Source: Chloroflexota bacterium (GTDB lineage Bacteria > Chloroflexota > Limnocylindria > P2-11E). Taken from it: a stretch of DNA of 64,000 bases. The DNA lies in the NCBI GenBank assembly GCA_027310565.1, contig DAIDAP010000037.1:256163-320162 (forward strand), given 5' to 3'. This document shows positions 7,878 through 50,696 of the stretch, piece after piece; position 1 is the first letter of the stretch, and every line of letters starts with the position of its first letter. The position numbers and the translations under genes were made by a program. The notes beneath the pieces were generated by a model. That model saw only the letters and a list, made by a program, of their open reading frames with translations. It was not told where the DNA came from and ran no database searches.

Positions 7878-8897
7878 ATGAAGCGTCTGAATCCGCTCGC
7901 GCTCATCTCGATCCTCGCGATCCTGAGCACGTCGTGCGGCACGCTTGGCATCGGCGGCGGCTTGAAGATCGGCATGGTCACCGACATCGGCCAGCTCGAG
8001 GACAAGTCCTTCAACGAGTTCTCGTGGAAGGGCGTCCAGGACGGCGCCAAGGCCGTCGGCGGCACGGCGCAGGTCATCGTCACGAAGGACATCGCGGACT
8101 ACAAGCAGAACATCCAGCAGTTCGTCGACCAGAAGTACGACGTCATCGTCACCGTCGGCTTCCTCATCGGCACCGACACGCTCGCGGCGGCCCAGGCCAA
8201 CCCGGGCATCCAGTTCTTCGGGATCGACCAGTTCATCTGCGTCCCGGCCGACGCGAACGACAAGGAGTGCAAGGGCAAGGTCCCCGACAACTACCAGGGC
8301 CTCGTGTTCAACGAGGCGCAGGCCGGGTACCTCGCGGGCATCGTCGCCGGGACGATCACCAAGAGCGGCAAGATCGGGGCGGTCGGCGGCCGCTCGGACG
8401 TCCCGCCCGTCGTGAACTACATCAAGGGCTACGAAAACGGCGCGAAATCCGTGAAGTCGAACGTCCAGGTCCTCGTGAACTACACGGAGGACTTCAACGC
8501 CCCCGACAAGGGCGAGGCGTCGGCGAAGACGATGATCTCGCAGGGCGCCGACGTCGTCTTCCAGGTCGCCGGCCTCACCGGCGCTGGCGTCCTCCGCGCC
8601 GCCTGCAACGCGAAGGTCTGGGGCATCGGCGTGGACGTCGACCAGTACCTCTCGCTCCCCGACCTGCAGAGCTGCATCGTCACCAGCGCCGAGAAGCGGC
8701 TGCAGAACGCGGCCGGCGAGGCGATCAAGCGGTTCAAGGACAAGGGCAAGCAGAGCGGCAACTACACCAACGACGCGACGAACGCCGGGATCGGCGCGTC
8801 GCCGATCCGCAACCTCAGCCCCGTCCCGGCGGGTCTCGAGGACAAGATCAAGCAGGCCACCGAAGACATGAAGTCCGGGAAGCTGAAGCCGGTCTAG
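7878..8897 (+). CDS. BMP-family (PnrA/Med-like) ABC substrate-binding lipoprotein
   Basis: Lipobox LSTSC after a signal peptide. BMP family sequence features and operon context with a tandem-ATPase ABC protein and two permeases. Confidence 0.8.
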   Translation: MKRLNPLALISILAILSTSCGTLGIGGGLKIGMVTDIGQLEDKSFNEFSWKGVQDGAKAVGGTAQVIVTKDIADYKQNIQQFVDQKYDVIVTVGFLIGTDTLAAAQANPGIQFFGIDQFICVPADANDKECKGKVPDNYQGLVFNEAQAGYLAGIVAGTITKSGKIGAVGGRSDVPPVVNYIKGYENGAKSVKSNVQVLVNYTEDFNAPDKGEASAKTMISQGADVVFQVAGLTGAGVLRAACNAKVWGIGVDVDQYLSLPDLQSCIVTSAEKRLQNAAGEAIKRFKDKGKQSGNYTNDATNAGIGASPIRNLSPVPAGLEDKIKQATEDMKSGKLKPV

Positions 8898-8923: not shown

Positions 8924-10477
8924 ATGAAGGACGGGCCGACCGCTGGGTCGGCCCGTCCCGTCCTCGAGATGCGCGGCATCACCAAGCGATTCCCGACGGG
9001 GACGCTGGCGAACGACGGGATCGACCTCGACGTCCGGCGCGGCGAGATCCATGCGCTCCTCGGCGAGAACGGCGCCGGCAAGACGACGCTCATGAACATC
9101 CTCTACGGCCTCCTGGTGCCTGACGCGGGAGAGATCCGGATCGACGGCGCGGTGGCGACGATCCACGATCCCGCGGACGCGATCGCGCGCGGCATCGGCA
9201 TGGTGCACCAGCACTTCATGCTCGTACCCGTCCTCACCGTCGCCGAGAACGTCATCCTCGGACAGGAGATCACGCGGGCCGCGCAGATCCTCGACCTGGC
9301 CGAGGCGGGCAGACGCATCCGGGCCCTCGGCGCCCGTCTCGGGTTCGATATCGACCCCGGCGCGCGCGTCTCCGGGCTCTCCGTCGGGCAGCAGCAGCGC
9401 GTCGAGATCGCCAAGGCCGTGTACCGCGACGTGCGGATCCTCGTCCTCGACGAGCCGACGGCGGTCCTCACGCCACAGGAGACCCGCGAGATCTTCGGCG
9501 TGCTGCGCGCGCTCCGTCAGGACGGCGCGAGCATCGTCTTCATCAGCCACAAGCTCGACGAGGTGCTCGAGATCGCCGACCGCATCACCGTGATCCGCCG
9601 TGGCAGGGTCGTGGGCAGCCGGCGACCCGGCGAGACGAGCGAGCAGGAGCTCGCGGACCTCATGGTCGGTCGGAGCGTCTCCCTCCGTGTGGACCGCGGG
9701 ACCTCCCACGCGGGCGCGCCCGCGCTCGAGATCGTCGGGCTCCGCGCGAACGACGACCGCCGGCACGAGACCGTCCGCGGCGTCGACGTCACCGTGCGTG
9801 CGGGCGAGATCGTCGGGATCGCCGGCGTGGCCGGCAACGGGCAGGACGAGCTCATCGAGTGCCTCGTCGGCCTCCGGCGGCCGACCGCGGGCGCCGTCCG
9901 CCTCGCCGGGCGGGACGTCACCCGCGCCAGCGTCGACCGGCGGCGCGACGTCGGATTCGCGTTCGTCCCGGCGGACCGCCACCGCTACGGGCTGGTCCTT
10001 CCGTACACCGTCCGGGACAACCTCGTCCTGACTCGCTACGCGGAGCGGCCGTACGTCGGCGGCCTCGGCACGTTCATCCGGCAGGATGCGGCGATCGACG
10101 AGGCGGCGCGGCGCCTCATCGCGGAGTTCGACATCCGCACGCCCTCGGAGCGCGACCCGGTGAGCACGCTCTCCGGCGGCAACCAGCAGAAGGTGATCGT
10201 CGCGCGCGAGTTCCGCCAGGACCTGAAGGTCATGGTGCTCGACCAGCCCACGCGCGGTCTCGACGTCGGCAGCATCGAGTTCATCCACAGGCAGGTCATC
10301 GCACGGCGTGACGCCGGCGTCGGCGTGCTCCTCGTCTCGGCGGAGCTCGACGAGGTGCTCGAGCTGTCGGATCGCGTGCTGGTGATGCATCGCGGCCGCA
10401 TCGTCGGCGAGTTCGCCGCCTCCGAGGCCCAGCGCGACCGCATCGGCCTCCTCATGGCGAAGGGCGCGGCGGCGTGA
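8924..10477 (+). CDS. ABC transporter ATP-binding protein with two fused ATPase domains (sugar/nucleoside importer type)
   Basis: Two Walker A (GENGAGKTT, GVAGNGQDE), two signature and Walker B motifs; 517 aa. Start ATG 8924 (MKDGPTAG); the upstream part of the 880-aa ORF is read-through across the SBP gene in another frame. Confidence 0.85.
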   Translation: MKDGPTAGSARPVLEMRGITKRFPTGTLANDGIDLDVRRGEIHALLGENGAGKTTLMNILYGLLVPDAGEIRIDGAVATIHDPADAIARGIGMVHQHFMLVPVLTVAENVILGQEITRAAQILDLAEAGRRIRALGARLGFDIDPGARVSGLSVGQQQRVEIAKAVYRDVRILVLDEPTAVLTPQETREIFGVLRALRQDGASIVFISHKLDEVLEIADRITVIRRGRVVGSRRPGETSEQELADLMVGRSVSLRVDRGTSHAGAPALEIVGLRANDDRRHETVRGVDVTVRAGEIVGIAGVAGNGQDELIECLVGLRRPTAGAVRLAGRDVTRASVDRRRDVGFAFVPADRHRYGLVLPYTVRDNLVLTRYAERPYVGGLGTFIRQDAAIDEAARRLIAEFDIRTPSERDPVSTLSGGNQQKVIVAREFRQDLKVMVLDQPTRGLDVGSIEFIHRQVIARRDAGVGVLLVSAELDEVLELSDRVLVMHRGRIVGEFAASEAQRDRIGLLMAKGAAA

Positions 10478-11613
10478 CGCGCCTGCGGGCCGCCTGGCGG
10501 GTGGCCTCGATCCCCGTCTACAGCATCCTGCTCGCGCTCCTGGTCGCCGCGGTCGTCATCATCGTCTCCAGCACCTTCACCGCGACCGGCTTCGACCCGC
10601 TGCTCCCGCTCGCGGCGTACCTGCGCCTGCTCATCGGCGCGTTCGGCAGCCCGAGCGGCATCTCGAACACGCTCGTCGCGGCCGCGCCGCTCATGTTCGG
10701 GGGCCTCGCCGTCGGCCTCGGGCTGAAGGCCGGCCTGTTCAACATCGGCGTCGCGGGCCAGTTCCTCGTCGGGGCGTTCGCGTCGGCGGTCGTCGGAGCA
10801 AGCCTCGCGGGGGCACCGATGCTCGTCGGGATGCCCCTCGCGGTGCTCGCGGGCGCCCTCGCCGGCGCCGCCTACGGCTTCATCCCCGGGTTCCTCAAGG
10901 CGCGCACCGGGGCCCACGAGGTCGTGACCACGATCATGCTCAACAACGCCGCGACGCTCCTGCTCACCTGGGCCGTCAACGACCTGGTCCGCGCACCAGG
11001 CTTCACCTTCCCTCGCACCGCGGCCGTCGGAGAGAGCGCCCTCCCGGTGCTCATCGGCCGCAACCTCCACCTCGGCGTGGTGCTCGCGGTCGTCGCGATC
11101 TTCGTCGTGCGGTGGGTCCTCGACCGCACGACCCTCGGCTTCGAGATCCGCACGGTCGGCCTGAACCCCGAGGCCGCGCGGTACGCCGGCATGCGGCCGG
11201 TCTTCATCACCGCGCTCACCATGACGCTCTCGGGTCTTCTCGCCGGGCTCGCCGGATCCATCCAGATGCTCGGGGTCATCGGCTTCTACGCTCCGGGCAT
11301 CACCGCGTCGGTCGGGTTCGACTCGATCGCCGTCGCGCTCCTCGGCCGGTCCGATCCGATCGGCATCCTGTTCGCGGCGCTGCTCTTCGGCGCGTTCCGC
11401 GCCGGGGCGCCGCTCATGCAGATCGAGACGAGCGTGCCGATCGAGGTCATCGACATCATCCAGGCCCTGGTGATCCTCTTCCTGGCGGCCGACCTCATCG
11501 TCCGCAGGCTGTTCCGCGTCCGAGCCGCGAAGCCTGAGATCGCCGAGCTGCAGACCGTCACCAAGACCTGGGGCGGCACCACGCCGAGCACGACGCCGGG
11601 CGGCGGGGACTGA
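10474..11613 (+). CDS. ABC transporter permease (BMP/ribose-type, first of two)
   Basis: Polytopic membrane protein. Start overlaps the ATPase stop. Confidence 0.8.
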   Translation: MTRLRAAWRVASIPVYSILLALLVAAVVIIVSSTFTATGFDPLLPLAAYLRLLIGAFGSPSGISNTLVAAAPLMFGGLAVGLGLKAGLFNIGVAGQFLVGAFASAVVGASLAGAPMLVGMPLAVLAGALAGAAYGFIPGFLKARTGAHEVVTTIMLNNAATLLLTWAVNDLVRAPGFTFPRTAAVGESALPVLIGRNLHLGVVLAVVAIFVVRWVLDRTTLGFEIRTVGLNPEAARYAGMRPVFITALTMTLSGLLAGLAGSIQMLGVIGFYAPGITASVGFDSIAVALLGRSDPIGILFAALLFGAFRAGAPLMQIETSVPIEVIDIIQALVILFLAADLIVRRLFRVRAAKPEIAELQTVTKTWGGTTPSTTPGGGD

Positions 11614-33970: not shown

Positions 33971-35539
33971 TTACGGGCCCTCGTGGTCGTCGTCGGGGAC
34001 GAGCGCGACCGAGTTCGAGAGCGGGTTCAGCGTGCAGTCCGAGCACTCGAGGACGTCGCCGTATTGCCCGCCCCAGAAGCCGCGGATCTCGCTTCCGCTC
34101 ACGAGGCCTTCGTAGAAGGTGAACGGCGCCACGGTGAAGAGATGGACCCGGTCGATCTTTTCGTTCCCGTTCGGGTCGACGTTCGAGCAGTCCGACCCGT
34201 CGCCGATGAGGCTCCACTCCTCGCCGGGCTGACCGGGCGAGTAGGTCTCGGCGCAGTCCCACAGGAACACGATGACGACGAGCCCCTTCCCGTACGGCTT
34301 CCCGGACTTGGTGAACCGGTCCGAGAACGGCGCGTTCGGGTCGCCTTCGCGCTGGATGAGCGAGCGCATGTTGTCCGCGATGTTGTCGCCGAGGTTCCCC
34401 GACGCGAGCGACGTCTCGACCCAGTCGCCCGTCAGCGCGTTGCCCTCGCCGCACGAGGGCGCGAGGTCCGGCCGGCTCTCGTCGTCGCACACGGCACGCT
34501 CGGTGAGCGGCGACGGCTGTTCCTGACCCTCCGGCAGGCTCGCGGAGTCCCACGCCTCGGTCAGCGAAAGCTCGCCGAGGAACGAGTAGTAGAACCAGTT
34601 CGGGATGTCGCACGTCTTGTCGTACTGCTGCGGGTCGTGGCTGCCGGCGGTGTCCCACGGGCCACCGCAGTTGCCCTGGTCGGGCTTGTCCGGCCCATTG
34701 CTGTAGTCCGTCTTCGCCTCCGCGCCGGTGCCGCTCTGATCCCATGACGCGGTCAATTGCGGGACTTCGCCACCCAAGCGCGTCGAGTACCGGGACGGGT
34801 CGATGAGGCCCTTGAAGCTCCCGTAGACGACGTCGTCCTCCCGCGATGACCAAAAGACGGTGGGCTCGACCTCCGTCGGGTCGCAGTCGCCCGGCACGCA
34901 CGGGTTGTCGAAGTCGGCCGGGTCGTAATGGCGCACCATCGGCCAGATCGGGCCCGCGAAGGACGGGACGTTCCCCGAGATTTGTGCCCGGGCGGAGGCG
35001 GCCGCGTCGATCGCCGGCCGCCCGATCACCGACGCCACGAGCGACCGGTACGTCGTGGAGACCGCCACGCGGACGTACACGGTGTCGCCCGGGACGATCT
35101 GGCTACCCGCAGGATCGTCGCAGACGCCGAGCGCCGAGGCGGCCGAGGTCCACACGATCGGATCGGTGTCGCTGCCGAACTGTAGGGTGAACTCCGTCGT
35201 GCTCTCGCGGATCTGGAACGCGTCGTTCGCGTCCACGAAGCGCTTCGCCTCGCACCAGACGTCCTCGCCGTGGACGGCGAACGCGATCCGGTCGTCGACC
35301 AGGATCACCGATGTCGCCAGCTGCCGCGCCGCCCCGAGGGCCGCTGCGTCGGCGGCGGTCTGCAGGACGCGGCGCTGGGTCAGGCCGTAGCCCCAGTCGA
35401 CCGCGAGGGCGAGCGCCCCCAGCAGGACGACGATCGACAGGGCGACGACGACCATCGACTGCCCGGCCTCGGACCCTGTGAGCCGCTTCGTGAGCGATCG
35501 CACGACAGCGATCCTTTCGCCGGGCGGGGCGCGTGCCAA
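33971..35539 (-). CDS. TadG/TadE-like pilus-assembly protein, large pseudopilin-type with extended C-terminal domain
   Basis: N-terminus GQSMVVVALSIVVLLGALALAVDWGYGL...LQTAADAAALGAARQ is the Tad TadE/TadG signature. The protein is about 520 aa. The overlapping 540-aa ORF in another frame is rejected. Confidence 0.65.
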   Translation of the reverse strand: MARAPPGERIAVVRSLTKRLTGSEAGQSMVVVALSIVVLLGALALAVDWGYGLTQRRVLQTAADAAALGAARQLATSVILVDDRIAFAVHGEDVWCEAKRFVDANDAFQIRESTTEFTLQFGSDTDPIVWTSAASALGVCDDPAGSQIVPGDTVYVRVAVSTTYRSLVASVIGRPAIDAAASARAQISGNVPSFAGPIWPMVRHYDPADFDNPCVPGDCDPTEVEPTVFWSSREDDVVYGSFKGLIDPSRYSTRLGGEVPQLTASWDQSGTGAEAKTDYSNGPDKPDQGNCGGPWDTAGSHDPQQYDKTCDIPNWFYYSFLGELSLTEAWDSASLPEGQEQPSPLTERAVCDDESRPDLAPSCGEGNALTGDWVETSLASGNLGDNIADNMRSLIQREGDPNAPFSDRFTKSGKPYGKGLVVIVFLWDCAETYSPGQPGEEWSLIGDGSDCSNVDPNGNEKIDRVHLFTVAPFTFYEGLVSGSEIRGFWGGQYGDVLECSDCTLNPLSNSVALVPDDDHEGP

Positions 35540-35778
35540 TACCGTGAACTGCGGATGCCGAGATGCCCGACCGCATCACGGTTCAGCGCGACGAATACGT
35601 GCGACACACGAAAGATCAGTGCGACGATACGTCGCGAGCGGGCACTCGACTTTCGCGCTCGCCCTACTGATTCTCCCGTACGAATTCGCGGCGACGAGGT
35701 CGTGGGGCAAAGACGTGCGCGACTTCACGACGTTCGGCACTCGTCGCGGCCGGTCGCACCGCGGCAACGTTCACGATC

Positions 35779-36441
35779 ATGATCCTGGTCTTCGATCGTG
35801 AGGGCTCCATCTTCCAGCAGCTGCGCGACCTCGACCTGAATCTCCCGCTCTGGCGCGTGAGCGATCCCTCGCGCCTGGACCGCACCAACGACATCGACCT
35901 CGCGATCGTGGCCACGCGGGACCAGCTGCCCTGGGACCTGATGACGAACGCGGACCGGCCCTTCGACACCGTCGTGCTCACGGACCGGTACGACGCCGAC
36001 GAGGCTCTCGAGGCCGCGCTCCACGGGGTCGTCGGCTACCTCGACGCGAGGGCGCCGGCGCCGCTCCTCCGGCGCTCGATCCAGGCGATCCTGCGCGGCG
36101 AGCCCGGATTCACCCGCGCGACGCTCGGTCAATGGGTCCGGCGCCAGCGCTCCTGCTCTCGCGCGCGCCTCAGCTACCGCGGTCTCACCGAGCGCCAGCG
36201 CGAGGTCCTCCGCCTCGTCGCGGATGGTCTCGCCGACAAGGAGATCGCGCAGCGGCTGGGCATCGCGACCGCGACCGCGCAGAAGCACGTGACCAACATC
36301 CTCGAGCGCCTCGGTGTCTCGAATCGCGCGGCCGCGGCGGCGGCGATCTGCTGGCAGGGGCTGGAGGCGCTGTGCTCCACCTGCGAGCGGCCCGCGAGCG
36401 CGTCGGATGCGCGGCCTCGTCTCATGCCCAGCATCGCGTAG
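35779..36441 (+). CDS. LuxR-family response regulator (degenerate receiver plus LuxR HTH)
   Basis: C-terminal LTERQREVLRLVADGLADKEIAQRLGIATATAQKHVTNILERLGV; N-terminal receiver-like domain (MILVFD...). Confidence 0.75.
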   Translation: MILVFDREGSIFQQLRDLDLNLPLWRVSDPSRLDRTNDIDLAIVATRDQLPWDLMTNADRPFDTVVLTDRYDADEALEAALHGVVGYLDARAPAPLLRRSIQAILRGEPGFTRATLGQWVRRQRSCSRARLSYRGLTERQREVLRLVADGLADKEIAQRLGIATATAQKHVTNILERLGVSNRAAAAAAICWQGLEALCSTCERPASASDARPRLMPSIA

Positions 36442-36492
36442 CGGCCAGATTTCGGTATTTACCCCGACACGCGCGATGACGACGCTCATCGC

Positions 36493-37131
36493 ATGTATCG
36501 CGCGCTCGTCGCGTGCCTCGCCGTCGCGGCGGGTCTCGCGCTGAGCATCCAGTCGAGCCCCGGCGCGCCGGCGGCCGTGCCGCCGGTGCCGATCGTGTCA
36601 CCCATGCCGACGATCGCGTCACCGACGCCGCAGGCGATGGCCACGACACCGTTCGGCGCCGCATCGGCGCCTGCGACCCCGTCGGCGACGCCGGAGCCGC
36701 GGAGCATCGAGGGCGTCCACATCGTCATCGAGCGTCTCGCGATCGATCTCCCGCTCGTGTGGGGCGACGTCCAGCGCGATGTACCCCGCGAGGGCTATCC
36801 GGGAGCGACCCCCGAGCGGGTCGCGCTCGTCTTCCCGGGCAGCGCGCTGCCGGGGACCGGCGGGAACACGTACGTCTACTCCCATGCCCGCACCGGCATG
36901 TTCCTGTCGCTGTGGCAGGCGAGGTTCGGCGATCAGGTCGTGCTCCGCTGGCCGGACGGATGGCAGCTGGGCTACGTCGTGACCGAGATCGTCCCCCGCG
37001 TGGATCCGAGCGACACGCGCTGGCTTGACGCGGCAGGCCCGGAGCGCCTCACGCTCCAGACGTCGACCGGTCCCTACCCATGGAATCCGCGCTTCATCGT
37101 GGTCGCCGTCCCACTCGGGAGATCGTCGTGA
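36493..37131 (+). CDS. Sortase-fold protein with Ser replacing the catalytic Cys (TLQTS instead of TLxTC); signal/TM anchor plus Pro/Ala linker
   Basis: Matches the sortase pattern motif by motif: PGTGGNTYVYSHAR (GN..GHR His motif), FGDQVVL, YVVTEI, LTLQTSTGP (Cys-to-Ser position), NPRFIVVA (Arg motif). Paralogue at 46351..47136. Confidence 0.6.
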   Translation: MYRALVACLAVAAGLALSIQSSPGAPAAVPPVPIVSPMPTIASPTPQAMATTPFGAASAPATPSATPEPRSIEGVHIVIERLAIDLPLVWGDVQRDVPREGYPGATPERVALVFPGSALPGTGGNTYVYSHARTGMFLSLWQARFGDQVVLRWPDGWQLGYVVTEIVPRVDPSDTRWLDAAGPERLTLQTSTGPYPWNPRFIVVAVPLGRSS

Positions 37132-37556
37132 CACGACGCCGTATCCGCGTCTGCGTCGTCGACGCGGGTCCGGGTGTCGCCGCCTACCCGCGTCTCGACG
37201 AGTGCGACCTCGAAGTCGTCGGCGCGCTCCCGGGGATCGCGGACGCGCTCCGCGCGCCGATCAGCGACCTCGATCTCGTCATCGTCGGCGCGTTTCCGAG
37301 GGACCTGCGGGACGCCCGCTTCCAGTCGCGGATCACCCGCCTCGCCCGGCGGCTGCCGACGGCGCTCGTCGTGCCGAAAGTCACGCGGCGCGCCGCCATC
37401 GTCGCGGCGAATGCGCGCGTGAGCGCGCTCGTGGTCCGCGACGCGCCGCCGACGACGTTCGTGCACGCGATGCGGGCGGCATTTCGCGGCGAGGTCGCCT
37501 ACCCGCACGAGGCCGTCACGCGCCTCCTCCGGCTCGTCCCAACGCAACCCGTCTGA
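37128..37556 (+). CDS. Hypothetical receiver-like (CheY-fold?) protein
   Basis: VTRRRIRVCVVDAGPG...DLVIVGAF resembles a degenerate REC domain. The GTGA overlap with the upstream gene supports translation. Confidence 0.35.
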   Translation: MTRRRIRVCVVDAGPGVAAYPRLDECDLEVVGALPGIADALRAPISDLDLVIVGAFPRDLRDARFQSRITRLARRLPTALVVPKVTRRAAIVAANARVSALVVRDAPPTTFVHAMRAAFRGEVAYPHEAVTRLLRLVPTQPV

Positions 37557-37640
37557 CCCCCGGTGACTTACCGACTTCACGGAGGGTGGCGGCATTCTTC
37601 GGTATGGCCGTCACCGCCGGCGCTCCATACCGTCGGATGC

Positions 37641-38033
37641 GTGAGCGAACGAGGTCAGAGTCTCGTCGAGGTCGCGATCGCCCTGCCCTTCCTGCTCATC
37701 GTGCTGGTCGGGCTCGTCGATCTCGGGCGCGTCTTCCACTACACGATCGCGGTGGAGACGGGCGTGCGCGAGGGCGCCGCGTACGCGGCGCGGCTGGTGG
37801 CACCCGACGACGACGCGATCCGCCAGCGCATCTGCGAGGCGAGCGGCATCGCCACCGAGGGCGGCCCGTGCGACGGGCTCACCCTCACGGAGGCGCGCGT
37901 CGGCGGCGAGGGCGGGGGCTTCGTCGACGTCATGTACGACCTCGACCTGCTCTTCGGCCACATCCTCCGCTTCGCCGACCCCGGCCCCGTGCACCTGCGC
38001 GCGACCGCGACCTTCCCGAGTCTCGTGAGATGA
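37641..38033 (+). CDS. tadE: TadE-like pseudopilin
   Basis: GQSLVEVAIALPFLLIVLVGLVDLGRVFHYTIAVE (TadE N-terminal motif). GTG 37641. Confidence 0.75.
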   Translation: MSERGQSLVEVAIALPFLLIVLVGLVDLGRVFHYTIAVETGVREGAAYAARLVAPDDDAIRQRICEASGIATEGGPCDGLTLTEARVGGEGGGFVDVMYDLDLLFGHILRFADPGPVHLRATATFPSLVR

Positions 38034-38503
38034 GACGTCCCGTGTCGACCCGCGCGAATGGTTTCGCGAAGGACGTGCGCGGCGTGGCGATCGTCGAGTT
38101 CGCGATCGTCATGCCGATCCTCCTTCTCCTGCTCGTCGGCATTTTCGAGCTGGGACGCGCGTACAACGCGTACGCCACCGTGCGCAGCGCGAGCGCCGAG
38201 GGCGCCCATTGGGCCGCGCTGCACCCCGGCGCGGCGATGTCGGAGATCGAGGCCGCCGTTCTGCGGCGCGTGGTCCCGCTCGACACGCGGCGCGTGTCGG
38301 TCGAGGCCTGGTACGACGACGGCACCGCGTACGTCCGGTGGGATGAGGGCGGCATCCCGGCCTCCGGCCCCAGCAAGCGCATCGTGCCGATCCGTGTCCA
38401 GGTCAGCTATCCCTGGTCCGCCGTGACCTTCCTCTTCAGCAGCGTCCTGCCAGAGCGTTCCGCGACCTTCACCGCGACAACGACCGCCGACGCGATGCGA
38501 TGA
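38030..38503 (+). CDS. TadE-like pseudopilin (second copy)
   Basis: RGVAIVEFAIVMPILLLLLVGIFELGRAYNAYATV. ATGA overlap with the preceding tadE. Confidence 0.75.
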   Translation: MRRPVSTRANGFAKDVRGVAIVEFAIVMPILLLLLVGIFELGRAYNAYATVRSASAEGAHWAALHPGAAMSEIEAAVLRRVVPLDTRRVSVEAWYDDGTAYVRWDEGGIPASGPSKRIVPIRVQVSYPWSAVTFLFSSVLPERSATFTATTTADAMR

Positions 38504-38527
38504 CGGCGGCGAGAAAAGGAGCCTGAC

Positions 38528-39250
38528 GTGCGCGCCTCGAGATCCTGGATCTTCCTCGTCATCGGTGTCGTCCTCGCCGTCGCGACCGGCATCGTCCTCT
38601 ACCAGATCGCGGCGTCGCCGCCCACCGCCCAGGCGACGGTGAACGGGGCGACGGTCAGCATCGTCGTCGCGACGGCGGATATCGCCCCGCGGACCGTGAT
38701 CGCCGCGGACGTGGTGACCATGAAGGCCTACCCGACCGACCTCGTGCCGCCGGGCGCGCTCACCGGCCAGACCGACGCGGTGGGCGCCACCACGAGCATC
38801 CGCATCTCGAAAGGCCAGCCGGTCCTGCGCGACGCGCTCTCGGCGGCGAGCCCGAGCGCGGTGAGCAGCAGCGTGATCCCAGCCGGCAAGGTCATGGTCG
38901 CGTTCCCGACGAACGATCCGCTCACCACCGCCGGCCTCGTGAGCGTCGGCGACCGCGTCGACCTGCTCGCCACCGTCGTCGTCGGCACGGGCGAGGGCAC
39001 GCGGACGACACAGACCACGCTCCAGAACCTCGATGTCGCGGAGGTCATCCTGCCCACGAAGGAACAGCCGCAGCGGGTCCGCTCGCTCGTCTTCGTCGTG
39101 GACCACCAGGTCGCCCTCGTCCTCAAGTACCTGCGCGACGCCGAGACCACCGTCGACCTCACGATCCGATCCCGCGCCGAGACGGCGCTCGTGAAGACGA
39201 CGAAGGTCGATCTCGAGTACCTCGTCAACACGTACGAGATGAAGAAGTGA
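38528..39250 (+). CDS. cpaB: Flp pilus assembly protein CpaB (RcpC-like)
   Basis: N-terminal TM, SAF-like domain (GATVSIVVATADIAPRTVIAADVV) and C-terminal domain typical of CpaB. Confidence 0.75.
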   Translation: MRASRSWIFLVIGVVLAVATGIVLYQIAASPPTAQATVNGATVSIVVATADIAPRTVIAADVVTMKAYPTDLVPPGALTGQTDAVGATTSIRISKGQPVLRDALSAASPSAVSSSVIPAGKVMVAFPTNDPLTTAGLVSVGDRVDLLATVVVGTGEGTRTTQTTLQNLDVAEVILPTKEQPQRVRSLVFVVDHQVALVLKYLRDAETTVDLTIRSRAETALVKTTKVDLEYLVNTYEMKK

Positions 39251-40410
39251 CACGCGAGCGTCTGGTCCACCTCATCGACACGGACACCGGGCTCGCGGTG
39301 CAGCTGCGGGACCCGCTCGCGACGGCGCGGCTGCCCCTCGCGGGCACCCACGCCAACGTCGAGGCGCTCCTCGCGTCGGAGCGGGCCGTGCCGGACGTGG
39401 TGGTCCTCGACTGCGCGGCCACGGGCGGTGAGCCCGCTTCCGCGGTCCGCGCCGTCCTGTCACGGTGGCCGGACATCTGTGTCGTGGTCACCGGCGGCAC
39501 GCCCTCGATGCTGTCGCACGCGGTCACCGCCGGCGCGCGCGGCTTCCTCCTCAAGCCGTACGCGCCCGACGAGCTCGTCGACGTGATCAGCGAGGCGACG
39601 GCCGGGGCCCGAGCGGTACCCCACGTCGAACGGACCGACGGGAAGATCGTCGCGATGTACGGACCGAAGGGCGGATCCGGCTCCTCGACCGTCGCCGTCA
39701 GCCTCGCCGCGCTGCTCGCCGGGCGGCCCGGCCTGTCCGTCGGGCTCGTCGACCTGGATCTGCAGTTCGGCGACGTCGGCGTGCTCCTCGACGTGCGGAC
39801 GCCGAACAGCATCCGGGACCTCGTCCAGCACGAGATCGATGGCGCCCTGGTGGACGACACGTTCGTGCGCCACGGCTGCGGAGCGCGCGTCCTGCCGGCG
39901 CCCGACACGCTCCTCACGAACGGCGCGATCGAGGCCGCCGGCATCGAGCACGCGCTCGAAGGTCTGCGCCCGCACTTCGACGTGATCATCTGCGACCTTG
40001 CGCAGGCGGTCGACGACCTCACGACGCGCGTCCTGCGCCTCGCGGACCTCGTCGTGCTCGTCACGAAGCCGGAGCTCACCGCCCTCAAGAGCCTGAGCCG
40101 TCTCCTCAAAGCGAAGGAGCTCTCGCTCCGGCTCGACGACCACGTCCTCGTCGCGGTGAATCGCCTCCCCTCCCGCGGCGCGCTGAGGCCGAGCGAGGTG
40201 GAGCGCTCCATCGGCCGACCGATCACCGTCGGGATCCCGAGCGATGGCGCGGCCATCGTCGACGCCGCGAACCGCGGCGTCCCCGTGGCCGATCCGCGCG
40301 TCCACTCACGCGCGCACAAGGCGTTCGTCGACCTCGCCTCCGCGGTCGCGCGCGAGCTCGAGCTCGAGCCACCGCAGGCCGGAGGCCCGCGACTGGTGGA
40401 GGTGGCCTAG
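39247..40410 (+). CDS. cpaE: Pilus assembly protein CpaE/TadZ (N-terminal receiver-like domain plus ParA/MinD-type ATPase)
   Basis: Deviant Walker A YGPKGGSGSSTVAVSLA. REC-like N-domain. Confidence 0.8.
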   Translation: MTRERLVHLIDTDTGLAVQLRDPLATARLPLAGTHANVEALLASERAVPDVVVLDCAATGGEPASAVRAVLSRWPDICVVVTGGTPSMLSHAVTAGARGFLLKPYAPDELVDVISEATAGARAVPHVERTDGKIVAMYGPKGGSGSSTVAVSLAALLAGRPGLSVGLVDLDLQFGDVGVLLDVRTPNSIRDLVQHEIDGALVDDTFVRHGCGARVLPAPDTLLTNGAIEAAGIEHALEGLRPHFDVIICDLAQAVDDLTTRVLRLADLVVLVTKPELTALKSLSRLLKAKELSLRLDDHVLVAVNRLPSRGALRPSEVERSIGRPITVGIPSDGAAIVDAANRGVPVADPRVHSRAHKAFVDLASAVARELELEPPQAGGPRLVEVA

Positions 40411-41747
<1,337 letters not shown>

Positions 41748-41751
<4 letters not shown>

Positions 41752-42695
41752 CGCAGGCCGAGATGCTGGCCGTCCTGGGGGCGGCCACCGTCCTCGCGTT
41801 CGTGATCGCGATCTGGGTCCCGACGTTCGCGCGCGCGCGCTCGATGCAGCGACGCCTCGCCGGGTTCGTCGAGAACGGCGAGGTCGCCGTCGACCTCGGC
41901 GGGCAGCGCCGCGAACGTGGCGTCTTCGTCGCCGAGCGTGGCCGCGGCGGCGCGTTCGGGTGGCTGCGCGACCTCATCGGACAGGCCGACGCGGATCTGA
42001 CGCTCGCCGACGTTCTCGTCGCGACCATGGTGCTCGGCGTCTCGGCGGCCGCGGCGGTGGCGATCGTCTGGCTCAACCCGATCGTCGCGGTCGGTGCGGG
42101 GATCGTCGCGGCGGCCGCGCCGCTGCTGTGGCTACGCTGGCGCGCCGGACAGCGCCGTGCGCGGTTCGTGTCGCAGCTGCCCGAGACGATCGAGCTCCTG
42201 GCGACGATGGTCCGCTCGGGCAACACCTTCCTCCAGGCGATGGAGCACGTGGCGTCCGAGTCGCAGGACCCGATGCGCTCCGCGCTGCACGTCGTCGTGC
42301 GCGAGATCGGGCTCGGCGCGTCGCAGGAGGAGGCCCTCGAGCGGCTCCTCGAGCGCTTCCCGTCGGACGACCTCGCGCTCGTCGTCGCGTCGGTGAACGT
42401 CCACCAGCAGACCGGCGGCTCGCTCGCCACCGTCCTCGACCGGATCTCGGAGACCCTGCGCGAACGCATCCGGCTCCAGGGTGACATCCGCGCGTTTACG
42501 GCGATGCAGCGCTACAGCGCCTACGTGCTCGCGGCGCTGCCCGTCGCGGTGGCGGGGATCCTCATGCTCGTCAGCCCTGAGTACATCACCCTGCTCGTCG
42601 CGCCCGGCGCGCTGCGCGTCTTCGCGGCGATCGCCGGGATCGAGATCGTCCTCGGATTCCTGGTGCTTCGGCGGATGGCGGAGATCGATGTTTGA
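41748..42695 (+). CDS. tadB: Tad inner-membrane platform protein TadB
   Basis: T2SSF-like domain. ATGA overlap with cpaF; RBS GGGAGG. Confidence 0.8.
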
Positions 42696-43641
42696 GACGT
42701 TCGGGCTGCAGCTCGCTTCCGAGACCCAGGCCGCGATAGGCGTCGCGCTGCTCGGCGCGCTCGCGATGCTCGCGCTCGCGCTGTGGTGGGCGTTCCGCGG
42801 CGGCGAACGCGAGGCGCGCGCACGCGAGCGCCGACTCGCGATCGTCGTCGGCGAAGCGGAGCAGACCACGGCGGGCGGCGCTCCGACGGCGAAGGGCATC
42901 CCGGCGCTGCAGCGGCTCGCGTCGCTGGTCGGCGCGCTCATGCCCGCCGCGATCGCCGCGCGCACGACCGAGCGCCTCGCGCGGGCGGGCCGTCCCTTCG
43001 GCCTCGAGGCCGCGGACTACCTCGCGCTGCGCGCGCTCAGCACGGTGATCTTCGCCGTCCTCGCCGGTGGCGTCGCCTGGGCCGCCGGGCTCGAACCCGC
43101 GGCGATCGGCCTCGTCGCCCTCGCCGGCGCGCTCCTGGGCTACGCGGTCCCCGGCATCCTGCTCGACCGCGCGATCCGCGGACGCAAGCGCAACATCGTC
43201 CGCGCGATGCCCGCGGCGCTGGACATGCTCGCCCTCTCGACCGCCGCCGGGCTCACGCTCGATGGCGCCATGGCGCAGGTCATCCAGCGGTGGGACACGC
43301 CGCTCGCCGGGGAGCTGCGCCGCTACCTCGCCGAGGTGCAGATGGGGCGCGACCGGCGCGCGTCGCTGCGCGCGATGTCGCGCCGGGTCGGCGTCCAGGA
43401 GGTCACGCGGCTCAATGCGGCGATCATCCAGGCCGACTCGCTCGGACTGCCGATCGCGCAGGTCCTCCGCGAGCAGGCGAACGAGATGCGGCGCATCCGC
43501 CGCCAGCGCGCCGAGGAGGCCGCACGGTCAGCGCCGGTGAAGATGGTGTTCCCGCTCGTGCTGCTCATCTTCCCGGCGCTGTTCGTCGTCGTGCTCGGGC
43601 CAGCGATCCCGCGGATCATGGATCTCTTCACCTCCTACTGA
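42688..43641 (+). CDS. tadC: Tad inner-membrane platform protein TadC
   Basis: T2SSF-like domain, paralogous to tadB. 8-nt overlap with tadB. Confidence 0.8.
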   Translation: MFETFGLQLASETQAAIGVALLGALAMLALALWWAFRGGEREARARERRLAIVVGEAEQTTAGGAPTAKGIPALQRLASLVGALMPAAIAARTTERLARAGRPFGLEAADYLALRALSTVIFAVLAGGVAWAAGLEPAAIGLVALAGALLGYAVPGILLDRAIRGRKRNIVRAMPAALDMLALSTAAGLTLDGAMAQVIQRWDTPLAGELRRYLAEVQMGRDRRASLRAMSRRVGVQEVTRLNAAIIQADSLGLPIAQVLREQANEMRRIRRQRAEEAARSAPVKMVFPLVLLIFPALFVVVLGPAIPRIMDLFTSY

Positions 43642-43794
43642 AGCGACGTACCGAATTCCGCGTACGTCCGCGCCGCCTACCGACTCTCACGAATGGGCGG
43701 CGCATGCGTGCGTGCCTAGCGTCCGAAGGGAATGACGAGAACGCAGGAACGCATCGACACGTGGTCCGCGCCTGCGCGGACAGGGAGAATCCAC

Positions 43795-46290
43795 ATGCGC
43801 AAGGGCCCGCCGCCCCTCCTCATCCTCATGCTCTCGCTGATCCTGGCGATCAGCAGCGCCGCAGCCTCCTTCGCGGTCGCCGCTCCGGACGGAGCGGGTG
43901 TGAACCTCGACCAGTGGGCCAACACAGACGGGGCGTGGCAGAACGGGGACCTGAACAAGAACAACTCGGTCTACGCCGAAGGTGAGGTCGTCCCGTTCCG
44001 CCTCGCGATCGAAGGCCTCACGCCCGGCGTACACACCATCCACCTCAACTGGGACGTGACCGCGAGCGGGCACGCCGCGTACGACTTCCTCGCGAGCTAC
44101 GACGCGACCGAGTCACCGGACCTCTGCGCGGCCGGCGGAGGCGGCGTGTCGTCGCTCTGCCCATCGCTTCCGACCGCATTCCCGCTCGCGATGTTCACCG
44201 ACACGTTCTCCATCGACGGAAAGCCGATCGCGGGCGCGTACGGCTCGACGCCGCGCGTCATGACGCTCTACGGCGTGAGCGCGGCGTCCTTCGGGCCGCC
44301 GACCTACACGGACGGCGCGCACTCCTCCGGTGACGTCGAGCTGACGTTCACCGCGAGCGGGACCGCTGTCCTCCTCGCCTGGGGCGGCCACATCGCCGCG
44401 ACGTCGTACTGGGGCCCCGACGTACCGCAGGGCGCGGGCATGGTCTCGGGCGCTCCGTGGCACATGCGCACGCAGTCGCTGGACGGCGGCGGCCAGAGCA
44501 ATCAGGACCGCAGCATCCAGACGAGCGCGCTGCCCGACCCGGTCATCCGGATCGTGAAGTACCAGGACACGAACGGTGACGGCGACCGCGACGCCGGCGA
44601 GCCCGGCCTCGCGGGATGGAGCTTCACGATCTACGACTCCGCGCAGCACGATGAAGGCACATACAGCACCGGCACGGACGGCACGGACGGCACGGTGACC
44701 GTCACCATGCGTGACGCCGACACCTACACCGTCGTGGAGGACCTCCAGACCGGGTGGACGAACACGGATCCGGGCACCGGCTCGGAGACGGCCGTCGCGC
44801 CGCGCGGCACGACGACGGAGCTCGTCTTCGGCAACAGGTTCACCGAGGTGCCCGAGAACGGCACCGTCCAGGTCTACAAGTACAACGACGAGAACGGCGA
44901 CGGCGATGACGAGGACGGGGCGGACCCGGCCATCGCGGGCTGGGACTTCACGGTCCAGGCCGTCGTCGAGGGCACGCCCACCGGACCGACCTACGATCTC
45001 ATCACGGGGTCCGATGGCTACACCGACGTGCTCGAGCTCGCACCGGGCACGTACGGTGTCTGCGAAACGCTCGGCGAAGGCTGGACGAATACCTACCCGG
45101 GCTCGCAGGACGCCACCGTCTGCTGGGAGACACTCGTCGAGCCGGACCAGGACGCCATCCTCACGTTCGGCAACCACTACACCGCGCCGCCCGAGAACGG
45201 CACCCTCCGCGTCTTCAAGTACGACGACATCGACAACGACGGGTCGCGTGCCGAAGGCGAGCCGGGCCTCTCCGGCTGGCGCTTCACCGTCGAGCCGATG
45301 GTCGAGATCAGCACGCTCGAGAGCCTCATCCTGACGACCGGCTCCAGCCCGCTCGGACGCGGCACGCTGTCGCTGCCCGAAGGCTGGTACGAGGTCTGCG
45401 AGCAGAGCCCGCTCCCGACGGGCTGGAGCAACACCGACCCCGGCGACGGACTGTGCAACAGCGTGTACGTCCCTGAGGGCCAGGACAGCGACGTCCTCTA
45501 CTTCGGCAACCACTACACGCCGACGCCGACTCCGACGCCGCAGGACGGGACGCTCCAGGTCACGAAGTACAACGACACCGACCGCAACGGCACGCGCGGC
45601 ACCTCTGAACCCGGGCTTGCCGGCTGGGCCTTCCGGGTCTACAGCGGCACGACCCTCCTGACGACGCTCACGACCGACGCGAACGGTGTGGCAGCCATCG
45701 GGCTCGTCGCCGGTACCTACACGGTGACCGAGGTCACCCAGACCGGGTGGACGAACACCGAACCCGGTGGAACGACACCGACGAAGACGGCGACCGTGGT
45801 CGCCGGACAGGTCACCGGGGTCATCTTCGGCAACGCCGTGGTGATCATCCCGCCGACGACTCAGACGCAGCTCGTGATCACGAAGTACGCCGACGGCAAC
45901 CGCAACGGCGCGCGCGACACGGGTGAGGGCGTCCTCGCCGGCTTCACCTTCACCATCCGTGACAGCGCGGGCACCGTGGTCCGGACGGTCGTCAGCGGTG
46001 CTGACGGCACGGCGACGGTCACCGGACTCGCGCTCGGCGCGTACAGCATCACCGAGGAGGCGACAACGGGCTGGGTGAACACCGACCCCGGTGCCGCCGC
46101 GGGCGCGCGCAAGTTCGTGACGTTCACGAGCACCGCCACCTCGGCGACGGTCATCTTCGGCAACGCGCAGGTCCAGCTGCCCTCGACGTCGACGTCCGAG
46201 GACGGGATGGTGCTTCTGCTCCTCGCGCTCCTCGCGGGCGTCGGGCTGGCCCTGCCCTTCGCCGCACGGCGGGGGCCGCGCATGGCATAG
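43795..46290 (+). CDS. Large surface adhesin: signal peptide, ~250-aa N-domain, five SdrD-B/CnaB-like repeats, C-terminal sorting-signal-like tail
   Basis: ATG 43795 follows the RBS GGGAGA. Signal MRKGPPPLLILMLSLILAISSAAA. Repeats: VKYQDTNGDGDRDAGEPGLAGWSFTIYDS, VYKYNDENGDGDDEDG...AGWDFTV, VFKYDDIDNDGSRAEGEPGLSGWRFTV, VTKYNDTDRNGTRGTSEPGLAGWAFRV, ITKYADGNRNGARDTGEGVLAGFTFTI. C-terminus: QLPSTSTSEDG-MVLLLLALLAGVGLALPFAA-RRGPRMA. Confidence 0.8.
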   Translation: MRKGPPPLLILMLSLILAISSAAASFAVAAPDGAGVNLDQWANTDGAWQNGDLNKNNSVYAEGEVVPFRLAIEGLTPGVHTIHLNWDVTASGHAAYDFLASYDATESPDLCAAGGGGVSSLCPSLPTAFPLAMFTDTFSIDGKPIAGAYGSTPRVMTLYGVSAASFGPPTYTDGAHSSGDVELTFTASGTAVLLAWGGHIAATSYWGPDVPQGAGMVSGAPWHMRTQSLDGGGQSNQDRSIQTSALPDPVIRIVKYQDTNGDGDRDAGEPGLAGWSFTIYDSAQHDEGTYSTGTDGTDGTVTVTMRDADTYTVVEDLQTGWTNTDPGTGSETAVAPRGTTTELVFGNRFTEVPENGTVQVYKYNDENGDGDDEDGADPAIAGWDFTVQAVVEGTPTGPTYDLITGSDGYTDVLELAPGTYGVCETLGEGWTNTYPGSQDATVCWETLVEPDQDAILTFGNHYTAPPENGTLRVFKYDDIDNDGSRAEGEPGLSGWRFTVEPMVEISTLESLILTTGSSPLGRGTLSLPEGWYEVCEQSPLPTGWSNTDPGDGLCNSVYVPEGQDSDVLYFGNHYTPTPTPTPQDGTLQVTKYNDTDRNGTRGTSEPGLAGWAFRVYSGTTLLTTLTTDANGVAAIGLVAGTYTVTEVTQTGWTNTEPGGTTPTKTATVVAGQVTGVIFGNAVVIIPPTTQTQLVITKYADGNRNGARDTGEGVLAGFTFTIRDSAGTVVRTVVSGADGTATVTGLALGAYSITEEATTGWVNTDPGAAAGARKFVTFTSTATSATVIFGNAQVQLPSTSTSEDGMVLLLLALLAGVGLALPFAARRGPRMA

Positions 46291-46306
46291 CGAACACACT
46301 CCCTCC

Positions 46307-46336
46307 CACCCACGCGTCACGACGCCCCGGCCAGAG
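46307..46336. terminator. Bidirectional hairpin between the convergent adhesin and sortase-like genes
   Basis: GACGCCCCGGCC-agag-GCCGGGGCGTC (11-bp stem). Confidence 0.55.
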
Positions 46337-46350
46337 GCCGGGGCGTCGGC

Positions 46351-47136
46351 CTATCGCGTCGGAGCTGCCTGCACGATGAGCACCGGCCCGCACGCGTCCG
46401 GGCTGAGGCTCGTCTGCATCGAGAGCGGCGCGAGGGGAAGCGGCGGCGGCTCGCAGCTGCGCACGATGAGCGCGCCTGTGATCACGTACCTCGTCCCGTA
46501 CGCCCACACCGCGTCGCCGGCCCGCCACCCGGCGATCCGCCCGAACTGGGTGTAGGCGTGCCCCATCAGGTACTGCGGAGAGAGGCACAGGAAAGAGCGG
46601 ATCGCCGTGCCGATGTCCGTGCCACCCGCGCAGTCGTTGTACGGGACGATCGCCCCGCGCACATCGACGCGCGGATAGCAGAACCAGTCCGGCGGACACG
46701 TCTCGGCCGCCGCCGGTGCTGCCGCGGTCGGCGCGGCAGTGGGGGCCGGGCTCGGTGCGAGCGTCGGCACGGTGGTCGGCACTACGGCCGCGATCGACGG
46801 GCTGGGCACGGGATTCGCGCTCGACGCCGCGGCGCTCGGGGCGGGCGCGCCCGACGGCGCCGCCGACGGTGCAGCGCGCAGGGCGATCCCATCGTCGCCC
46901 GCGAATCGCACGGCGTCTTCGAGATCCACCGAGCTGTCCGGCAATTGCCGGAGGGTCGGCACCAGCGCCGCCGTCCCGGCGCCGGCCGTGTCGTCGACGA
47001 GGGCGGCCGAGGCGGGCGGGGCGTCGTTGCCGGCGAGGATGACGGCGATGAGGAGGCCGAGCACGGTCAGGGCGCCGCCGGCGTGACGACGTGCGGCTCG
47101 TCGCCGCGCCGCGGGCAAGTGCATGTGACCGCACAT
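46351..47136 (-). CDS. Sortase-fold protein paralogue, also with Ser at the catalytic Cys position (SMQTS)
   Basis: LMGHAYTQF (His motif), AGDAVWAYG, RYVITGALIV, PLSMQTSLSP, GPVLIVQA. N-terminal TM anchor and Pro/Ala-rich linker like the 36493 paralogue. Start ambiguous among M1, M12 and M16. Confidence 0.55.
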   Translation of the reverse strand: MCGHMHLPAARRRAARRHAGGALTVLGLLIAVILAGNDAPPASAALVDDTAGAGTAALVPTLRQLPDSSVDLEDAVRFAGDDGIALRAAPSAAPSGAPAPSAAASSANPVPSPSIAAVVPTTVPTLAPSPAPTAAPTAAAPAAAETCPPDWFCYPRVDVRGAIVPYNDCAGGTDIGTAIRSFLCLSPQYLMGHAYTQFGRIAGWRAGDAVWAYGTRYVITGALIVRSCEPPPLPLAPLSMQTSLSPDACGPVLIVQAAPTR

Positions 47137-47212
47137 GTAAGCAGCAAGGCACGCCTTTGTCAGCCCCAAACGGGGAGTCGCAACGGGTCAGCGACCGCTG
47201 TGCGGCAATCCC

Positions 47213-47706
47213 CTACAGGCCGACGCGCGGGAAGTCACCATGTTCCCGCAGAAAGGCGATGACGCCACCGGCGTCGAGGATCTCCTTTGCGAACGGCGGA
47301 AGGGGACGGAGGCGGATGTCCCCGCCCGGCGCGCCCAGGACACCGGCGGTCGCGTCGAGCGACACCTCGTCGCCGTCCTTCACGAGGTCGACCGCGTCGG
47401 CAGACTCGAGCACGGGGATGCCGAGGTTGATGCAGTTTCGGAAGAAGATGCGCGCGAAGCTCTTCGCGACGATGCCGCCGACGCCGAGCCGCTTCAGCGC
47501 GAGCACCGCGTACTCGCGGGACGACCCGCAGCCGAGGTTCTCGCCGCCGACGAGGATGTCGCCCGGCCGGACCTCCTTCGCGAAGCCCGGGCGCGCGTCG
47601 CAGAACGCGTAGGTGTGGAAGCGGTCCTGACCGACCATGAACGGCGCGTAGCGGCCGGGGACCATCTGGTCGGTGTCGAGGTCGTCGCCGAAGACCCAGG
47701 CGCGGC

Positions 47707-47710
<4 letters not shown>
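47213..47710 (-). CDS. leuD: 3-isopropylmalate dehydratase small subunit (aconitase-family small subunit)
   Basis: SRAWVFGDDLDTDQMVPGRY...GSSREYA. TTG start overlapping the leuC stop. Confidence 0.85.

Positions 47711-50696
<2,986 letters not shown>

Follow-up and report, generated by a model that had tools for sequence, protein, structure and literature searches.

Sortases, the classic cysteine transpeptidases, are in wide use as tools for protein ligation, and they are placed in the same MEROPS clan as the YkuD L,D-transpeptidases. Exchange of the thiol nucleophile for a hydroxyl usually cripples cysteine peptidases. Neither a natural sortase with a serine nucleophile, nor an LPxTST sorting signal, nor a sortase from Limnocylindria was described in the literature searched, nor was any paper found there that connects anchoring of the sortase type with a Tad pilus locus. 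LPXTS variants that streptococcal SrtA accepts are known (PMC9520033). The 64-kb stretch of DNA analyzed here, referred to in its entirety as the window, contains two sortase-like open reading frames (ORFs) and a single sorting signal of the type carried by the adhesin gene that lies between them. The ORF next to the 3' end of the adhesin gene is the subject of this analysis and is hereafter called the target. Its features are as follows, with residues numbered from the ATG at 47136.

46351-47136, reverse strand: coding sequence of a Ser-type sortase-like protein, 261 aa from ATG 47136, with the stop codon at 46351-46353
47029-47076, reverse strand: hydrophobic segment G21-G36, 16 residues, following an Arg-rich n-region, as read from the sequence
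46705-47004, reverse strand: Ala/Pro-rich linker, residues 45-144, about 100 aa, with no conservation in the family alignment and AlphaFold2 pLDDT mostly below 60
46354-46704, reverse strand: predicted sortase-fold domain, 117 aa, residues 145-261, delimited from family alignments, AlphaFold2 models, Foldseek and hhalign
46558-46560, reverse strand: codon (CAC) of His193, equivalent of SrtA His120, invariant and aligned to His in all alignments
46408-46413, reverse strand: codons (ACG AGC) of Thr242-Ser243, equivalent of T-C in TLxTC, with Ser in place of the catalytic Cys
47122-47137, no strand: inverted repeat CATGTG-ACCG-CACATG over both candidate ATGs, judged to be a chance occurrence

An earlier note on this DNA, drawn from its letters, had described a membrane anchor, a Pro/Ala-rich linker and a C-terminal sortase-like domain, and this layout is seen in the translation, the domain measuring 117 aa. 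All four motifs that it had singled out as sortase-like are present as well: GHAYT at residues 192-196, AGDAV at 206-210, RYVIT at 216-220 and PLSMQTS at 237-243. The ORF reaches to a TTG at 47169, and ATGs at 47136 and 47124 are also in frame; a Shine-Dalgarno-like sequence was absent before every one of these candidate starts, in the target and its homologues alike. The basic n-region and hydrophobic segment correspond to the N-terminal membrane tether typical of sortases. The N-terminus is either a signal anchor or a cleavable signal peptide, with a candidate signal-peptidase site ASA|A at residues 42-45. Hydrophobic runs comparable to that of the target were found at the N-terminus of 31 family members, and at least six have a lipobox Cys. 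The palindrome over the start codons, which the note had pointed out, does exist, one base away from the 47121-47136 first given; as a functional feature it was rejected, since the window holds 58 perfect 6-N4-6 inverted repeats and CATGTG-N4-CACATG was absent from all 17 related loci in which it was sought. Directly upstream, 76 nt from ATG 47136, are genes for the small and large subunits of an aconitase-family enzyme (LeuD/LeuC-like, 47213-49098, reverse strand). These are probably unrelated to the target, because this synteny is kept only in the closest relative, L021.

Neither the target protein nor its isolated domain has a Pfam match at E <= 10, and neither has an NCBIfam match. Homologues of the domain form 56 clusters at 50-79% identity, every one of them labelled hypothetical. 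An exhaustive profile search of 1.84 billion representatives returned only 58 proteins at E <= 1e-3. The family, recognized by the 117-aa domain that its members share, amounts to about 58 clusters at 50% identity. Among GTDB species representatives, 13 loci of the family were found, 11 from metagenome-assembled genomes of Candidatus Limnocylindria/Chloroflexota and the other two from bins labelled Saccharimonadales and Elusimicrobia; a further 61 loci with a target homologue came from metagenomes. By these searches the family is small, conserved and lineage-restricted. The region is 71% G+C with many overlapping ORFs, the closest database match of the target is 79% identical, and an exact look-up of the 261-aa product (start 47136 only) found no gene on record in the assembly collection, all of which would suit an ORF that arose by chance in G+C-rich DNA, or a pseudogene in decay. 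However, intact homologues are present in the 13 genome and 61 metagenome loci at 52-72% protein identity, the Cys, His and Ser residues and the synteny are all kept across them, and the target scores 199 bits against the family profile. Because of this conservation a chance or decayed ORF is effectively refuted and is regarded here as exceedingly improbable. The gene proposed at 46351-47136 is real, as judged from the homologue clusters and metagenome loci.

The structure of the target was predicted with AlphaFold2. Over the domain, pLDDT ranged from about 54 to 94 in the full-length model; the domain-only model had a mean pLDDT of 70.6 and a pTM of 0.71, with the lowest values, about 54, near His193. 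In Foldseek searches of the PDB the top 50 matches were sortases only (classes A, C, D and E), for the full-length and domain-only models alike, with best E values of 3e-4 and 9e-4 for the two models and query-normalized TM scores of up to 0.63. The sortase-like domain of the earlier note is therefore upheld by two independent models. Identity of the target as an L,D-transpeptidase (YkuD) was considered and rejected, as there was no Pfam match and no YkuD structure among the top 50 Foldseek matches. A profile search of PDB sequences yielded nothing beyond spurious matches to NodB/CBM, with E near 0.2.

A chain of profile alignments leads from the target family to recognized sortases. The distant matches of the target-family profile search include proteins with TLQTC and an (A/G)HNPG His motif. 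One such Cys-bearing relative, P0100, matches Pfam Sortase at 7.5e-14; a further relative, P0099, matches it at 1.5e-4, and several others give weak matches. Look-ups of the clusters of the distant relatives returned no taxonomy. The target family aligns with the Cys-bearing relatives in hhalign at a probability of 99.2% (E 2.5e-19), and these relatives in turn align at 94.5% (E 8e-8) with the family of the other sortase-like ORF of the window:

36493-37131, forward strand: Ser-type sortase with LTLQTS and a TCG serine codon, inside the Tad locus, Pfam Sortase E value 1.2e-13

The top fold matches are all sortases, and in every alignment His193 falls on the catalytic His and Thr242-Ser243 on the T-C of TLxTC. 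On predicted structure and sequence, the C-terminal domain of the target therefore belongs to the sortase superfamily as a divergent member, one that has Ser in the place of the nucleophile.

The putative active site was compared with that of Staphylococcus aureus SrtA. In this alignment His193 falls on His120 and Thr242-Ser243 on Thr183-Cys184, and His193 also aligns with His131 of the 36493 protein. Across 15 representatives of the Ser clade, which are 31-66% identical to the target, the only invariant columns are C147, H193, G207, D208, T242 and S243. The Ser243 codon belongs to the AGY class (AGC/AGT) in all 63 distinct target-family sequences, a single step from the TGY codons of Cys. The position of the canonical sortase Arg is occupied by Val252 in the target, and homologues carry P, R, A or S one residue earlier. 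The earlier note had remarked that the final strand of the target lacks this Arg; the absence stands, though not as a peculiarity of one copy, since the Arg position is unconserved throughout the target family and occupied by non-basic residues, whereas Gln256 close by is nearly invariant. The target protein ends in GPVLIVQAAPTR, and most family members end in VVQ(A/G)R. Six Cys are conserved in the core family (147, 153, 169, 184, 228 and 249), and Cys counts stay even in more distant members of the family. These Cys fit structural disulfides, putatively three, in an extracytoplasmic domain. A catalytic role for one of the six as a relocated thiol was considered and rejected, the even counts being those expected of disulfide pairs.

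The relation between the two sortase-like proteins of the window is a distant one. The earlier note had treated them as paralogues of the same architecture and had suggested pairwise and profile alignment as a check. The pairwise alignment gave no significant similarity (BLASTP E 0.45), and direct hhalign comparison of the two families gave a probability of 49.9% and E 1.6e-4 over 108 columns, indicating remote homology. Membership of one superfamily and the common domain order are thus retained from that proposal, and close kinship is not. The families also share QTS at the nucleophile position, a Limnocylindria/Chloroflexota lineage and neighbourhoods containing Tad and adhesin genes. Unlike the target family, the 36493 family is recognized by Pfam Sortase and retains the Arg (R200); it has no conserved Cys, and its serine codons are TCN. 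The 36493 protein itself retains His131, Ser191 and Arg200, and its best 120 homologues all have (L/I)TL(Q/R)TS and none TLxTC. Against the NCBIfam models NF033747 and NF033748 (classes E and F) it scores 20.5 and 14.8 bits, compared with cut-offs of 160 and 166; the target protein gave no match to either model. A search for relatives of the 36493 sortase returned 870 proteins at E <= 1e-3, some of which are publicly labelled 'sortase' with the Ser left unremarked. In L005 the gene immediately downstream of a target homologue (813-1595), and on one strand with it, encodes a 36493-type Ser-sortase (1369-2325) that has RLTLQTSTGP and a lipoprotein-like N-terminus.

Serine codons were informative in this comparison. 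A single step from TGY leads to either AGY or TCN, and no single step interchanges AGY and TCN within Ser. The codons of the 36493 family were TCG or TCC in the four independent loci that were read. The difference between AGY and TCN argues against a recent duplication relating the target to the 36493 gene. Because of this difference, and because the nearest relatives of the target bear Cys, the sequences suggest two independent Cys-to-Ser replacements in place of duplication of one Ser-sortase, the codon sample for the 36493 family being small.

Retention of His, Ser and Arg in the 36493 protein, together with its Pfam Sortase match and the neighbourhoods that its gene shares with that of the target, bears on whether the target is an enzyme at all. 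With both the catalytic Cys and the Arg replaced, the target may be a dead pseudo-sortase that keeps the fold and a groove for peptides. It would bind the adhesin or its LPxTST signal and serve as a chaperone, for retention or in regulation, leaving any cleavage to the 36493 sortase; the latter, with its His, Ser and Arg, could be the sole processor of the adhesin. Dead enzymes usually let their catalytic residues drift, however, and in the target family His193 and Thr242-Ser243 are among the six invariant columns while most other positions are variable, four of the six Cys included, and the Ser codon class is fixed. A binding protein devoid of catalysis is accordingly held to be rather unlikely, and an active Ser/His enzyme is the reading carried forward here.

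The adhesin gene and then the target gene close a Tad pilus locus.

33971-43641, no strand: Tad (Flp) pilus locus

It comprises a TadG-like gene (reverse strand), a LuxR regulator, the 36493 Ser-sortase, two TadE-like genes, CpaB/RcpC, a CpaE-like gene, CpaF (T2SSE), a TadB-like gene, called from position and length only, with no Pfam match, and TadC (T2SSF). The same order of Tad genes, adhesin and target homologue is found in L008, L018 and L082. No Flp major pilin was found in the window by regular expression or by tblastn with the L007 pilin, and no prepilin peptidase gene was seen in it. A small Flp gene lies between the adhesin and the target homologue in L007 (about 9101-9300) and L004 (9909-10025). 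Several other features of these loci were recorded. The LuxR/GerE regulator (35779-36441 in the window) precedes the 36493 sortase; in L029, L031, L034, L041, L043, L046, L059 and L079 a homologous regulator instead precedes the target homologue by about 500-700 bp, with both genes on one strand. A 158-aa ORF (37080-37556, forward strand) without a Pfam match overlaps the 3' end of the 36493 sortase gene, and its position is kept in L006, L008, L018 and L019, where the gene encodes 142 aa. The TadC of the window (42481-43641, 386 aa) consists of a T2SSF domain only; fusions of TadC with a VWA domain, about 633-648 aa long, occur in L001 (10583-12484), L004 (13866-15791) and L082 (17269-19215).

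The protein encoded between the Tad genes and the target is a candidate substrate.

43732-46290, forward strand: surface protein of 852 aa with SdrD_B/SpaA (CnaB-type) repeats, putative substrate, convergent with the target, with homologues in the same place in related loci
46177-46287, forward strand: adhesin sorting signal, consisting of LPSTST and, after a short spacer, a hydrophobic helix with an RRGPRMA tail
46320-46348, no strand: perfect 13-bp G+C-rich hairpin with a 3-nt loop and no U-tract, between the two convergent stop codons

The adhesin ends in ...QLPSTSTSEDG-MVLLLLALLAGVGLALPFAA-RRGPRMA. The tail-to-tail arrangement reported in the earlier note was confirmed, with 60 nt between the two genes. 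The hairpin in this gap is likely a bidirectional terminator; scans of 46200-47400 for sigma-70 promoter and intrinsic-terminator consensus sequences returned nothing and left the hairpin uncalled. Among the related loci that were fetched, the sorting signal is conserved in 34, and of the motifs tallied 23 are LPSTST, 10 LPNTST and one LPSTTT. Behind every one of them come a spacer, a hydrophobic helix and then a basic tail, and the consensus, LP(S/N)TST, is distinct from LPxTG.

To count the association between the two genes, loci were de-duplicated at 95% identity, which left 41 informative clusters and excluded 8 more in which the contig ends too soon. A convergent LPxTST gene lies within 2 kb of the target homologue in 24 of the 41, often at a spacing of 61-330 bp, and the earlier suggestion that the target sits beside its candidate substrate gains from this pairing and from the sortase-type signal of the convergent gene. 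Such a gene is often the last of a Tad pilus locus. Examples of the convergent genes are those at 8463- in L001, 10440- in L004 and 4886- in L046. In L045 and L049 the gene for an LPSTST protein instead precedes the target homologue and shares its strand. L006 has two target-family copies on one strand (8078-8818 and 10051-10677) with a 390-aa protein between them, and the second copy, which has a lipobox (LLLTGC), converges on an LPSTST adhesin. In L004 (8730-9809) and L014 (10538-11716) an inserted DDE transposase (IS element) separates the target homologue from the Flp-adhesin genes.

The remaining 17 of the 41 informative clusters have no convergent sorting-signal gene, and in some of these the neighbours are of another kind: an M23-type peptidase gene is found upstream of the target homologue in L017, and a gene for a GGDEF protein follows it in L016 and L017. 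Such contexts would be compatible with an active Ser/His enzyme that does a different job, either hydrolytic release or trimming of the adhesin or an action on peptidoglycan or pilus subunits; as a matter of general chemistry, oxy-esters are also less prone to aminolysis than thioesters. Against such a role, the LPxTST protein is the strongest and most frequent neighbour, the structural neighbours are all sortases, and Pfam matches to YkuD or other wall-enzyme families are absent. We consider a different job of this kind unlikely.

The best explanation is taken to be an active Ser/His sortase-type enzyme that acts on the neighbouring LP(S/N)TST adhesin, and its chances appear to us evenly balanced, with the activity, the substrate and the acceptor all deduced. 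It draws on the sortase fold, the homology chain, the constraint on the active site, the AGY codon, the extracytoplasmic signs and the LPxTST pairing. Counting against it are the missing canonical Arg and the informative loci in which no sorting-signal gene converges on the target homologue. The target model, moderately confident overall and weakest around His193, leaves the geometry of the His-Ser pair uncertain. An active target would be extracytoplasmic and tethered to the membrane: a signal or anchor at the N-terminus would be joined through a flexible Ala/Pro linker to a compact, disulfide-stabilized domain of 117 aa. This domain would recognize LP(S/N)TST in the adhesin while the hydrophobic tail holds the signal in the membrane. 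Cleavage would then take place after the Thr, with an acyl-ester intermediate on Ser243 and His193 as general base. Resolution of the acyl-enzyme by an amine acceptor (or water) could transfer the adhesin to a cell-wall precursor or to a co-encoded Tad pilus component. The target probably works beside the 36493 Ser-sortase, a pairing that would resemble the sharing of work between pilin-specific and housekeeping sortases of Gram-positive bacteria. A broader proposal, which we advance tentatively and consider possible but short of probable, is that Limnocylindria carry natural serine-nucleophile sortases of two lineages that arose by independent Cys-to-Ser changes, TGY to AGY and TGY to TCN, and that jointly process LP(S/N)TST proteins, including the adhesin of the Tad locus.

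If this is true, the sortase superfamily would gain its first Ser-based members, and sortase-type anchoring would be tied to a type IVc pilus system. The conserved His/Thr-Ser site, the match to LPxTST and a probable second, independent Cys-to-Ser switch in one lineage would together offer a case of nucleophile exchange that can be tested directly. Resistance to oxidation and a new recognition motif would set a serine sortase apart, and both are of interest for protein engineering. The analysis also provides a first functional lead, both for an unannotated family and for adhesin display beside Tad pili in poorly known Chloroflexota of soil and freshwater.

Insofar as the target resembles described enzymes, its relation to three groups can be set out. 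The first is the sortases proper (PF04203 / C60, classes A-F). Like these, the target has a predicted eight-stranded barrel, an N-terminal tether and linker, the (G/A)H His and an xLxTx motif with an invariant Thr before the nucleophile, and its neighbouring putative substrate has an LPxT-type signal followed by a helix and a basic tail. Compared with the traits by which Pfam PF04203 and MEROPS C60 are recognized, the predicted barrel fold, the His, the tether and a sorting-signal partner are found in the target, whereas the HMM threshold is not reached and the catalytic Cys and the strand Arg are lacking. It differs from classes A-F in having Ser for Cys, an unconserved Arg, three putative disulfides, a shorter domain of about 117 aa, scores below all Pfam/NCBIfam sortase models and LP(S/N)TST instead of LPxTG. 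The second group is that of the Cys-bearing relatives (P0090, P0092, P0094, P0097, P0100, P0101, P0106 and others), with the motif YxDCTG...HNPG...TLQTC. Like the target family they have the YxDC...C pair, the His and the LQT motif, and they agree with it in overall length, but they keep the catalytic Cys, several have Arg or Gln on the last strand, and they lack the C147/C153 and C228/C249 pairs of the target. The third group is the class C pilin-specific sortases of Gram-positive bacteria, which resemble the target in being encoded by a dedicated gene beside that of a SpaA/CnaB-domain protein, with a second sortase in the locus (9 kb away here). The target locus differs from these in containing a Tad (type IVc) pilus machine and not a sortase-polymerized pilus, and the target has neither a lid motif nor a Cys nucleophile. 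On predicted structure and profile comparison, the target family is classed here within the sortase superfamily as a new branch, a Ser variant, outside classes A-F.
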